Positions 1 through 64,000 of a DNA stretch of 64,000 nt are shown piece after piece (position 1 is the first letter of the stretch; each line of letters begins with the position of its first letter). The stretch is from a virus. Lineage: Duplodnaviria; Caudoviricetes. The DNA lies in IMG/VR virus record IMGVR_UViG_3300033072_000306, positions 25,451 through 89,450 of that record. One strand, 5' to 3'. Both the position numbers and the translations under genes were made by a program. Under the pieces are notes generated by a model, which saw nothing but the letters and a program-made list of their open reading frames with translations, did not search any database and was not told the origin of the DNA.

Positions 1-66
1 TGGTAATAAGATTCAACGACTACGTACTAAGATTTCTCAATTAAAGAAAATCTTAGTTTTAACAGT

Positions 67-95
67 TGACGAATGATTTAGTTTTTAGTATATTT
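67..95 (+). promoter_or_regulatory. sigma70-type promoter
   Basis: TTGACG-N17-TATATT upstream of the only convincing + strand gene. Confidence 0.7.
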
Positions 96-20114: not shown

Positions 20115-20204
20115 AATTAACTTTAGTAGAATGTTTGTGAGTTGGACTTGGTATCCTTAGCGAAATCTATTCACACAGCGACAAACATTCTACTAAAGTT
20201 AATT
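20115..20204. repeat. perfect 24-bp inverted repeat enclosing 42 nt
   Basis: AATTAACTTTAGTAGAATGTTTGT (20115-20138) / ACAAACATTCTACTAAAGTTAATT (20181-20204). Confidence 0.93.
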
Positions 20205-20280
20205 GGTGAGCCGTGAGGAACTTGAATCCCCATACCTCGAAGTAGAATTTCGATGCATTATCCAATTATGCTAACGACCC
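20204..20280 (-). tRNA. trnR: tRNA-Arg, anticodon UCU, encoded CCA
   Basis: GGGTCGT/ACGGCTC acceptor, GCAT/ATGC D stem, TCGAA-ATTCTAC-TTCGA anticodon arm, GGGGA-TTCAAGT-TCCTC T arm, ACCA end; 77 nt. Confidence 0.93.
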
Positions 20281-62429: not shown

Positions 62430-62819
62430 TTAATAAAATACATGACCATCAATTCTACGAGGTTTTACATTTGTCTTAAACCTAACACCAAGCTTAGTGG
62501 TGTTAAAGTATAGAGCGTTACCTACATGATTCTGAGTAGTGCATGAAATAGAATCATAAGCAACTTTTCTAATCTGTTGCCATTGTTCTTTATGTTGAGC
62601 GTCTTTGTAAGAAAGCTTTGGTGGTTTGCTTAGAGAGACGTTCTTATTGTAGAAAGAGAATTGACCTTTCTGTTTGATTACACCACAAATACTGTTAGGG
62701 TAGTTTGGATGCTTACTTCGGTTAATAATTGTTTGAGCTACTGCTTCTTGACCTTTCTTTGATTCACCCCTAGCTTCAAACCATAAGGCGACAGAAAGAC
62801 ACATTGCTTCAATAGACAT
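62430..62819 (-). CDS. cell wall hydrolase, SleB/Hydrolase_2 family
   Basis: CL..A.WFEARGE..GQ.AVA...INR...YP.SIC.VI.Q..QFS, ALYF, I.GH.FY. Confidence 0.9.
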   Translation of the reverse strand: MSIEAMCLSVALWFEARGESKKGQEAVAQTIINRSKHPNYPNSICGVIKQKGQFSFYNKNVSLSKPPKLSYKDAQHKEQWQQIRKVAYDSISCTTQNHVGNALYFNTTKLGVRFKTNVKPRRIDGHVFY

Positions 62820-62891: not shown

Positions 62892-63224
62892 TTATTTATA
62901 CAATTCATCAACAGCATCCACTAAAGCAGATTGTTTGATGATACATTTATTATGTTGCACCACTTCTTCATTAATCCAGATAGCGATATCTTTAGATTTA
63001 TTAGAAGGGATTTCCTTAATCTCTGAACACTTTGTTCGTAGAGATTTATCAATTACTGGAATTGGAATTACTGTTGGCTGATCTAATGGTTTCGTTTTGG
63101 ACTGACAACCACTCAGCAGAAAAACACTCGCTAGAATCAGAAATGTTGTTGATAATAGGTTGGAGTTTTTCTTTAATGATAGTTTCTGTTTTAGTGTCGT
63201 TAAGTTGTTTTTCATATCGTTCAC
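62892..63224 (-). CDS. o-spanin (outer-membrane lipoprotein)
   Basis: lipobox FLLSGC after a hydrophobic stretch, Pro-rich, C-terminal Cys; overlaps the i-spanin in another frame; exact start uncertain. Confidence 0.75.
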   Translation of the reverse strand: MNDMKNNLTTLKQKLSLKKNSNLLSTTFLILASVFLLSGCQSKTKPLDQPTVIPIPVIDKSLRTKCSEIKEIPSNKSKDIAIWINEEVVQHNKCIIKQSALVDAVDELYK

Positions 63225-63456
63225 TCACTTCACTAATACGTTTCTCTGTTTCATTTTGTTTTTTTAGAAATTCAATTGTTTTAGCTTGACTTGTAATAAC
63301 AATAGTGCTTAGTTGTAATTCATGTTCTTTCTTTAGAGATGCATTACGTTCATCTAAGATATTACAACGTATTAAAAGAGCTACAATGACAATTGAACAT
63401 AAGGCAATAACAATATACTGCCAATACTTTAAGATTAAAGTTAGATACAGAAGCAT
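63049..63456 (-). CDS. i-spanin (inner-membrane, N-terminal TM, coiled coil)
   Basis: TM at residues ~12-30, coiled-coil, Cys near C-terminus, overlapped o-spanin. Confidence 0.75.
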   Translation of the reverse strand: MLLYLTLILKYWQYIVIALCSIVIVALLIRCNILDERNASLKKEHELQLSTIVITSQAKTIEFLKKQNETEKRISEVSERYEKQLNDTKTETIIKEKLQPIINNISDSSECFSAEWLSVQNETIRSANSNSNSSN

Positions 63457-63459
63457 GTT

Positions 63460-63975
63460 AATACCTTTGAGATAATATTTGGAACGGAATTATAAGATAT
63501 GCTATGACTCTCGATTCACAAGTTTACTTAAGCACTTGCTTCACTACACCTTCTTGGTTTCCGCAATAAATTCCTCATTCGCTTACATGGTAGAGGGCTA
63601 CACGATATTCTCTTGCCGTAATATTTATTACTGATCACAAGAGGTATTTGAAATATAAAACCCAACAGTTTGAGCATCTACAGTCTAATCATAATTCGTC
63701 AATTACTTTCTGTACAGCACTTTCGGAATCCGAAGTTCTAGGCTTGTCGGGTAAACTTTAAAATTCATTGGTGAGGTTAGTGTCGATCACCACGACATTC
63801 TCTCTCTGCTGTTTTAAGGCTTTGAGATACCGCAACTTCTGGGAGAAAGTTGATCTTGGAGTATTTGAATTAAATTAAAAATTAAATTATATGAAGTGTT
63901 CCCATTGGATACGCTTAAGGTGTGTTAATTCACATATTTTGATTAGTACCCGATATTAACACTTCTATAATTTAA
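63460..63975 (-). ncRNA. candidate structured ncRNA / leader upstream of the late operon
   Basis: no ORF of 60 aa or more; many nested hairpins and an 18-bp inverted repeat. Confidence 0.45.
63882..63975. repeat. 18-bp inverted repeat with a 1-nt bulge enclosing 57 nt
   Basis: TTAAATTATA(T)GAAGTGTT (63882-63900) / AACACTTCTATAATTTAA (63958-63975). Confidence 0.85.
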
Positions 63976-64000
63976 CTGAGATAAAAAGAAACCATCCAAT

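Follow-up and report, generated by a model that had tools for sequence, protein, structure and literature searches.

Two non-coding RNAs, RNAC and RNAD (species 1 and 2), come from the transfer RNA (tRNA) region of phage T4, and their roles are unknown (PMC3014915). They are the closest described precedent for the element reported here, an 85-nucleotide (nt) gene with the shape of a tRNA that lies in the non-coding tract just 5′ of the lysis genes of a phage. The stretch of DNA analysed, called the window below, is 64,000 nt long and corresponds to positions 25451-89450 of an 89,450-bp virus record, window position 64000 being the end of the contig. Like the T4 RNAs, the 85-nt genes are found in or at the end of tRNA arrays and on the strand of the tRNAs. 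By description, the family is set apart from RNAC and RNAD by its length of 85 nt, its cloverleaf-like form and its palindromic 10-nt loop, and unlike them it is confined to Acinetobacter-type phages and their uncultured relatives.

An earlier note on this DNA had read the tract as one densely structured region and had proposed a stable non-coding RNA, a structured leader or an antiterminator for the late genes. A structured RNA supported by covariation is indeed present, but it is not one RNA: the tract holds at least three independently conserved modules, and its best-conserved element, the 85-nt gene, had been overlooked. We put at about 70% the probability that the tract is the distal part of a ~750-nt untranslated, cassette-built array of small stable RNAs, organized like a tRNA operon and processed. 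The comparison defines three RNA families with covariation-supported folds, and among the carriers are several phages of Acinetobacter baumannii that are in culture and of interest for therapy (B9, Phab24, BS46, AM24 and phiAB441).

Structure, conservation and distribution of the 85-nt gene

Copies of the 85-nt gene were gathered by pattern scans and blastn. The 17 distinct copies (types A, B and C, together with the window copy) are every one exactly 85 nt long and align without gaps. The structure was read from this alignment and the pairs were then counted on it (Table 1, in which RNA position p corresponds to window coordinate 63565-p). The results showed that 95.3% of the cells were paired, versus 35-46% in registers slid by 1-3 columns, and that 11 pairs had changed on both sides across the 17 copies. 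These comprise the acceptor pair 6:76 (A-U or G-C), pair 8:16 of the mini hairpin (C-G or U-A), pairs 21:52, 27:46, 30:43 and 31:42 of the long arm, and pairs 59:71 and 60:70 of the T-like stem, while the remaining three are the symmetric positions of the loop hexamer. Since the invariant pair G26-U47 and the frequent pair G57-U73 would both be A-C mismatches on the opposite strand, the RNA was assigned to the minus strand of the window. A covariance model of the gene scored the window copy at 92 bits and found one copy in the genome.

The conserved stretch opens with GCGGA and closes with CCG-N-UCCA. The acceptor pairs are 98% paired, U82 and C83-C84-A85 are invariant, and T stands at position -1 in every copy; bacterial ribonuclease P (RNase P) prefers U at position -1. 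The place of the D arm is taken by a hairpin of 3 bp with a 5-nt loop, which abuts the acceptor stem. The “anticodon” arm has about 13 layers with a purine-rich 4x4 internal loop, and its 10-nt loop consists in 17/17 copies of G, six variable bases and UAA. In type B, the T arm has four standard stem pairs and a 7-nt loop (TTTGAAT, TTTGATT or TTCGATT), the Ab15 copy reading GG-TTCGATT-CC. In type C and the window, the T-like arm has a 5-bp stem and the loop AGCATAT, with two of the stem pairs broken or re-registered in the window copy.

Phage tRNA clusters are usually annotated only for the output of tRNA finders, and here the best-conserved element is invisible to ARAGORN and Rfam. With default settings, ARAGORN called only a tRNA-Arg at 20204-20280 in the window and left the 85-nt gene uncalled; Rfam searches at E up to 10, RF00005 included, returned no match for the copies of the window, B9 and Phab24. 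Every copy is overlooked by ARAGORN and by the tRNA model of Rfam. The Rfam search that the earlier note had recommended for its putative RNA likewise came back empty, with zero matches in the whole window at gathering thresholds and zero in 63300-64000 at E up to 10 (Rfam 15).

A decoding tRNA was considered in several forms (suppressor, intron-containing, with an 8- or 9-nt loop, mitochondrial-type) and rejected: the anticodons given by relaxed ARAGORN runs were mutually inconsistent, the window copy was never called, and by eye no register gives both U33 and R37 in all variants of the loop, which has 10 nt and not 7. A tRNA-Sec-like 8/5 or 9/4 geometry was also set aside, since its pair 8:74, although possible in types A and B, does not form in type C or the window, whereas pair 8:16 fits 17/17 copies. 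Given that the 85-nt RNA keeps a tRNA-like acceptor end, that relatives also keep a T arm, that the D arm is replaced and that there is no consistent anticodon, the RNA most likely acts as a tRNA mimic that does not decode, serving some tRNA-binding factor as decoy or ligand, and possibly as a dimer through its palindromic loop. A decoy or dimeric mimic of this kind would be a new player in the contest of phages with host systems that target tRNA.

The loop hexamer is ACUAGU in most copies of the three types, CUUAAG in the window and the contig L022, and CUAUAG in phiAB441. All three are perfect palindromes, and each of the two replacements altered 4-6 adjacent bases of an RNA that is otherwise nearly identical. 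The simplest reading of the palindrome would be the pairing of two loops, or recognition by a dimeric factor. A cis partner was looked for and rejected, no second copy of the hexamer being found consistently within 1 kb. More specifically, the RNA might be a homodimeric tRNA mimic whose palindrome pairs loop to loop with a second copy. The palindrome has been exchanged as a unit between lineages, all three symmetric pairs having changed at once, and a possible driver is that its DNA form is a restriction target to be avoided by the phage. We regard this homodimer as doubtful. If it does form, a dimeric host factor that binds tRNA, such as a defence nuclease or a tRNA-processing or tRNA-charging enzyme, could be titrated or bridged by the paired particle.

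Many 6-nt palindromes are strongly avoided genome-wide, with ACTAGT occurring 2 times versus 10.7 expected and CTTAAG 13 times versus 28. This depletion of 6-nt palindromes looks like restriction-site avoidance, which could account for the exchange, rather than the loss, of the loop palindrome. Other palindromes avoided in the whole genome (window 1-64000 plus the 25,450 nt before it) were GAATTC (0 versus 18), AACGTT (3 versus 20), AGATCT (1 versus 12) and GAGCTC (1 versus 13).

At least 15 GenBank genomes of Acinetobacter phages and 11 metagenomic or IMG/VR contigs carry the 85-nt gene within a tRNA array or at the end of one. B9-type phages carry types A and B, with both present in MD-2021a, and the AM24-type carriers are AM24, Mithridates, Herod, Bestia and Ab15. 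In AM24, Mithridates and Ab15, the gene lies inside large tRNA arrays and is flanked on the same strand by tRNA-Tyr and tRNA-Ile; it comes directly after tRNA-Ser in L020, and after tRNA-Arg with a 6-nt spacer in L028. The GenBank records of the carriers named leave it unannotated or have it overlapped only by hypothetical open reading frames (ORFs) or the adjacent lysis gene. The genome papers of TaPaz (ARAGORN) and Phab24 (ARAGORN and tRNAscan-SE) give only tRNA-finder runs and do not mention the element, and a literature search for a tRNA-like RNA with a kissing loop, or for expression of the 85-nt element in these phages, returned nothing relevant. The covariance model found no copy in TaPaz, ET-ABTNL-9, VH-8 and D'Alembert. 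The core pattern was absent from 185,579 bacterial and archaeal species genomes, and a looser pattern of the 5′ half returned only the same five contigs from IMG/VR.

Some surroundings of the gene in relatives are also of note. In L019, L026 and L029, the 40-nt flank directly 5′ of the gene ends in a tRNA-type 3′ end; it is identical to the end of the L028 tRNA-Arg in L026 and L029 and one base off in L019, and ARAGORN calls no tRNA in the three contigs. Another non-canonical tRNA may lie at this place. In the uncultured relative L027 (122-1177 and 1790-2700, minus strand), a ~900-nt non-coding array adjoins a 351-aa ORF that has a TnpB/OrfB-type look by eye; the array contains the 85-nt gene, module iii (described below) and an oversized tRNA-shaped element ending GGTTCAAATCC..CCACCA. 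In phage B9 (L002, 3105-3164), a perfect inverted repeat of 13-14 bp (ACATCACTCTCTTA.. / ..TAAGAGAGTGATGT) is placed between a promoter-like site, TTGACT-17-TATTCT, and the 85-nt gene, and may be a processing or terminator hairpin.

Modules ii to iv and the turnover of cassettes

The features of the tract and of the genes that follow it are collected in Table 1. As the earlier note had stated, there is no sizeable ORF (none >51 aa in 63457-63880 on either strand), and the five helix sets that it named are all present on the minus strand. Compensatory change was found for three of the five, namely CTCTTG/CAAGAG with the inner GTAAT/ATTAC, TTCGG/CCGAA, and TACAG..TAATT/AATTA..CTGTA; the other two, both in 63763-63863, went unsupported. 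The motif TTCAAATAC, which it had seen opening two sub-modules, does stand at two cassette junctions but is not over-represented in the window (3 versus 1.9 expected), and the higher guanine-cytosine content that it reported proved marginal (0.345-0.37 in the tract versus 0.28-0.33 in flanking 200-nt windows; genome 0.343).

Table 1 Features of the tract and the adjoining late genes (window coordinates, or RNA positions where so marked).
Feature	Position	Strand	Details	Basis
Second TTCAAATAC	63861-63869	minus	precedes module iv	
Module iv	63763-63863	minus	orphan cassette; helices AGAT-CAACTT/AAGTTG-ATCT and TGTCG/CGACA	
Module iii	63660-63752	minus	multi-hairpin	RNAalifold, 5 variants
Module iii, closing helix	63745-63752 with 63660-63667		ACCCGACA/UGUUGGGU in window; ACCAAACA/UGUUUGGU in relatives	
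Module iii, hairpin	63719-63736	minus	TTCGG/CCGAA	
Module iii, compound hairpin	63674-63718	minus	TACAG..TAATT/AATTA..CTGTA	
TTCAAATAC junction motif	63644-63652	minus	immediately 5′ of module ii	
Module ii	63573-63643	minus	two hairpins	alignment A4, covariation
Module ii, hairpin A	63610-63643	minus	stem CUCUUG/CAAGAG; loop UGAUCAG..AUUACGG	
Module ii, conserved CGUGUAG	63598-63604	minus	between hairpins A and B	
Module ii, hairpin B	63573-63596	minus	stem CCUC/GAGG; invariant 16-nt loop UACCAUGUAAGCGAAU	
85-nt tRNA-shaped gene	63480-63564	minus	encoded CCA end	alignment, covariation
85-nt RNA, acceptor-like stem	RNA 1-6 with 76-81		then U82, C83-C84-A85	
85-nt RNA, mini hairpin	RNA 7-9 with 15-17			
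85-nt RNA, long arm	RNA 19-31 with 42-54			
85-nt RNA, 10-nt loop	RNA 32-41		G, palindrome CUUAAG (63527-63532), UAA	
85-nt RNA, T-like arm	RNA 57-61 with 69-73			
23-nt spacer	63457-63479	minus	encoded CCA end to spanin ATG; AAAGG ribosome-binding site	sequence reading
Rz-like i-spanin	63049-63456	minus	first gene 3′ of array	Pfam/PHROG matches
Rz1/LysC-like ORF	62892-63224	minus		Pfam/PHROG matches
Hydrolase_2 endolysin	62430-62819	minus		Pfam/PHROG matches

That the tract instead encodes short conserved proteins (ORFs of 25-51 aa) is hardly credible. Frames of 49 aa (63528-63677, minus) and 51 aa (63479-63634, plus) exist, but both span the 85-nt gene and module ii, and the cassette missing in the sister contig L007 takes part of each, including the stop codon of the 49-aa frame. 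Substitutions among relatives are paired stem changes and indels are cassette-sized; by reading of the alignment, the frame over module ii in B9 is altered in Ab3-TPeters and lacks a start codon in the window.

Module ii, a module of ~70-85 nt, is carried by B9, phiAB441, TaPaz, BS46, Phab24, MD-2021a, Ab3-TPeters and ET-ABTNL-9 and by the contigs L007, L022, L038 and L039. In alignment A4 (n = 11 sequences), 96.4% of the cells were paired, with 9 compensatory pairs, versus 22-52% in slid controls. The stem of hairpin A is wholly swapped between lineages (ACCCA/UGGGU versus CUCUUG/CAAGAG), and its loop is kept in the window group and the B9-type phages. The stem of hairpin B covaries through at least 6 variants, including CCUC/GAGG, GUGUC../..GACAC, GUAUCAC/GUGAUAC, CACUU/AAGUG and GGUUUU/AAAACC. 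Direct reading of L038 and L039 added further variants of the stems of this module. The CGUGUAG between the hairpins could pair with CUAC(C)AUG in the loop of hairpin B, which would model as an H-type pseudoknot with sensible loop lengths; its stem is near-invariant, with a C-A mismatch in three sequences and no compensatory change. VH-8, D'Alembert, AM24 and the L027/L030 group lack the module, and its core pattern is absent from the 185,579 species genomes. A sigma-70 or repeated late promoter was tried for module ii and rejected, as the hexamer spacing is inconsistent among relatives and the 15-mer occurs once in the window with 3 mismatches allowed.

The antiterminator proposed by the earlier note finds no support when the whole tract is considered: in relatives, two of the modules are met in other places, in tRNA and non-coding RNA arrays away from the late genes and in another order, and viable relatives do without whole cassettes, TaPaz and L007 both lacking the 85-nt gene. 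Module ii is the only part for which the idea is possible, and even there we think it unlikely. By analogy with HK022 put or lambda nut, the tract would then be a cis-acting leader or processive antiterminator for the ~30-kb late operon, in which the nascent RNA, module ii above all, modifies RNA polymerase and lets it pass terminators. The module is single-copy, and in every case in which the next gene could be named it is found 5′ of the lysis genes; in the window group, the B9-type phages, ET-ABTNL-9 and L039, what precedes it is the promoter or tRNAs. It has two stem-loops, one of them with a large invariant loop, and in L039 a terminator-like hairpin with a T-run comes directly after it, ahead of an ORF read as the endolysin. 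Yet the window has no terminator after it, nor has the sequence read downstream in B9, ET-ABTNL-9 and L038, and in the window it is ~560 nt from the promoter and parted from the operon by the 85-nt gene. The remaining modules are also found in other orders and at a distance from late genes, and the relatives VH-8, D'Alembert and AM24 have no module ii. Should module ii control late transcription, phage late operons would have in it a new kind of cis-regulatory RNA.

Module iii was not found in GenBank phages. RNAalifold on 5 variants of it gave 30 pairs, 6 of them compensatory, and separate folds of each variant, the minimal UUCG-capped forms included, gave the same architecture. Its conserved boxes are CAAGCCUAGA and GUAGAUGCUCAAACUGUU, and its interior is variable, being no more than one UUCG-capped stem in L019, L020 and L028 and at most two compound hairpins. 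The module lies 3′ of the 85-nt gene in L017, L020, L027, L028 and L030, and 5′ of it in the window. Module iv is missing from L007 and had no homologues elsewhere in the genome or in the GenBank phage collection; its fold is no better than chance (z -0.7 minus, -0.2 plus). Beyond it, an 80-nt hairpin cassette at 63893-63972, also absent from L007, folds far better than chance (z -6.05 plus, -3.4 minus), and no homologues were found in the genome or the GenBank phage collection. Compared with L007, the window thus has three extra cassettes (the 85-nt gene, module iv and this hairpin), all bounded by A/T-rich linkers, and L022 has a different insert, of 417 nt, between module ii and the 85-nt gene. 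As far as these comparisons tell, the tract is four cassettes that have been gained, lost and reordered among close relatives, which offers a view of how such RNA islands evolve.

Cassettes that are wholly present or absent between 93%-identical genomes would also be expected of decaying debris of a former tRNA cluster, made of pseudogenes and recombination scars with no present function. The orphan state of module iv and its lack of a significant fold fit this reading too, as do the absence of the 85-nt gene from TaPaz and L007 and the helix-weakening substitutions of the window copy relative to L022. We nevertheless consider debris quite improbable. The gene is 85 nt in every copy and has its 11 compensatory pairs, with types A, B and C spread across B9-type, AM24-type and window-type phages. 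Its nucleotide identity is 75-97%, versus ~40% for the neighbouring small terminase-like protein. Modules ii and iii covary as well, and neutral debris would not keep helices through two-sided changes.

The window copy differs from its nearest relative, in L022, at 4 positions. Two G-to-T changes disrupt the T-like stem at pairs 59:71 and 61:69, unless the stem moves to a register of 4 bp; of the other two changes, one lies in the T-like loop and one turns C81 to U, making G1-C81 a G-U pair. The loss of the gene in L007 is a clean cassette-sized difference. Given these helix-weakening changes and the absence from the sister contig, the 85-nt gene is evidently accessory and may be decaying in the lineage of the window.

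Promoter, genome context and the proposed array

The contig L007 (93% identical) continues without interruption across window 64000 to contig position 1 (L005 1-85). The two ends of a record classed as linear are joined in L007, and the contig break falls within the intergenic region. Because L007 bridges window 64000 to contig position 1, the genome is circular or circularly permuted, and the non-coding gap therefore extends past the window end. The sequence past 64000, which the earlier note had wished to see examined, holds a promoter match across the contig junction. This is the best sigma-70 match of the region (TTGACA-17-TATATT, 11/12 positions; contig 243-215, minus strand), and a scan for terminator-like sites between it and the spanin ATG found none. 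Given this match ~750 nt upstream and the terminator-free interval, the tract is predicted to be the 3′ two-thirds of a ~750-nt untranslated leader from a near-consensus sigma-70 promoter. The earlier idea of a structured leader thus had the position right.

Directly after the promoter there is a short hairpin with a T-run (L005 ~207-185), and the likely start site of the promoter falls within the 5′ arm of this hairpin. Just 5′ of the promoter ends a 52-aa ORF (L005 297-455, minus), hydrophobic by eye and without a PHROG match, which could encode a holin-type or other small membrane protein. In L007, the promoter-bearing segment of the window's genome is replaced by an insert of ~850 nt (2152-2999) with a 227-aa ORF on the opposite strand that has no Pfam or PHROG match.

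When 63400-64000 was compared with GenBank phages by blastn, only a ~115-nt stretch was matched, in B9, phiAB441, Ab5, Ab7 and MD-2021a and always in unannotated gaps of these Acinetobacter phages, apart from a further match of 38 nt at 97% identity in Ab3-TPeters. The small terminase-like protein, which is encoded with the large terminase further downstream on the minus strand (packaging; Pfam/PHROG), is ~40% identical to its counterpart in these phages. Of the whole region, the 85-nt gene alone could be picked up by blastn at that distance. In these phages, the matched gap sits between a gene for a 221-aa hypothetical protein and the endolysin. The corresponding gap holds tRNA-Ser, Pro and Asn in Ab3-TPeters, Tyr and Leu in BS46, tRNA-Arg in Edwardsiella phage ET-ABTNL-9, Met and Arg in Vibrio phage VH-8, and 21 tRNAs in the uncultured contig L039. 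By its placement, the array is seemingly the local version of a tRNA locus that related phages carry just 5′ of their lysis and packaging genes.

In the processed array that we favour, transcription would start from the sigma-70 promoter and run through modules iv, iii and ii and the 85-nt gene, and the same transcript would continue into the spanin, endolysin and terminase operon. The modules, parted by A/U-rich linkers, would be cut out like tRNAs by the tRNA-processing machinery. RNase P would cut after the invariant U(-1), before G1 of the 85-nt RNA, and the 3′ end would be trimmed to the encoded UCCA, leaving a lysis mRNA that begins ~23 nt before the spanin ATG.

Several observations weigh against a processed array of stable RNAs. 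Taken whole, the tract folds no more strongly than shuffled sequence: the dense structure noted earlier did not translate into unusual stability, the minimum free energy of the minus strand being -82.5 kcal/mol and the mean of the shuffles -84.7 (z +0.42; plus strand, z +0.46), and the evidence for structure therefore comes only from comparison with relatives. The loop AAUAGU of L026 and L029 is an imperfect palindrome, one base off, and the T-like stem is weakened in the window copy. Since TaPaz and L007 are viable without the tRNA-like gene, any function would be dispensable in the laboratory. The tie of module ii to the 5′ side of the lysis genes suits cis-regulation better than a free stable RNA.

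Comparison with known systems

The identity set of E. coli tRNA-Gly comprises G1-C72, C2-G71, G3-C70 and U73. The 85-nt RNA resembles a canonical tRNA, and tRNA-Gly in particular, in its acceptor-type stem with G1-C, C2-G and G3-C, its U discriminator, its encoded CCA and the U at -1; the genuine tRNA-Gly of AM24 likewise has G1, C2, G3 and U73. The 7-nt T loop of type B copies, with the T arm of Ab15, adds to this likeness. It departs from a canonical tRNA in its 10-nt loop without a consistent anticodon, in the absence of a G18-G19 D arm, in the 1-2 extra nt between the T and acceptor stems, and in having 6 acceptor pairs and an A-A mismatch.

The tRNA-like domain of transfer-messenger RNA (tmRNA) has a CCA acceptor end, a reduced D-arm analogue, a long helix at the place of the anticodon stem and a T arm, a topology that matches that of the 85-nt RNA. 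Unlike tmRNA, the 85-nt RNA has G-C at pair 3:79 in 17/17 copies, and not the G3-U70 alanine pair; it has no tag reading frame and no Rfam tmRNA match. Module ii recalls the put sites of HK022 and the nut sites of lambda, being likewise two stem-loops in the leader of a long operon, but differs from them in having no sequence or family match, in not lying close to the promoter in the window and in having no consistent terminator downstream.

For the loop, the nearest likeness is with kissing sites. The dimerization initiation site (DIS) of HIV-1 has a 6-nt palindrome in a 9-nt loop, flanked by purines. The setting here differs, being a tRNA-shaped phage RNA for which the dimer is a prediction only and one loop variant, AAUAGU, is imperfect. 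As in a kissing site, the palindrome of the 85-nt RNA has conserved unpaired neighbours, a 5′ G and a 3′ UAA, and it changes between lineages and stays palindromic.

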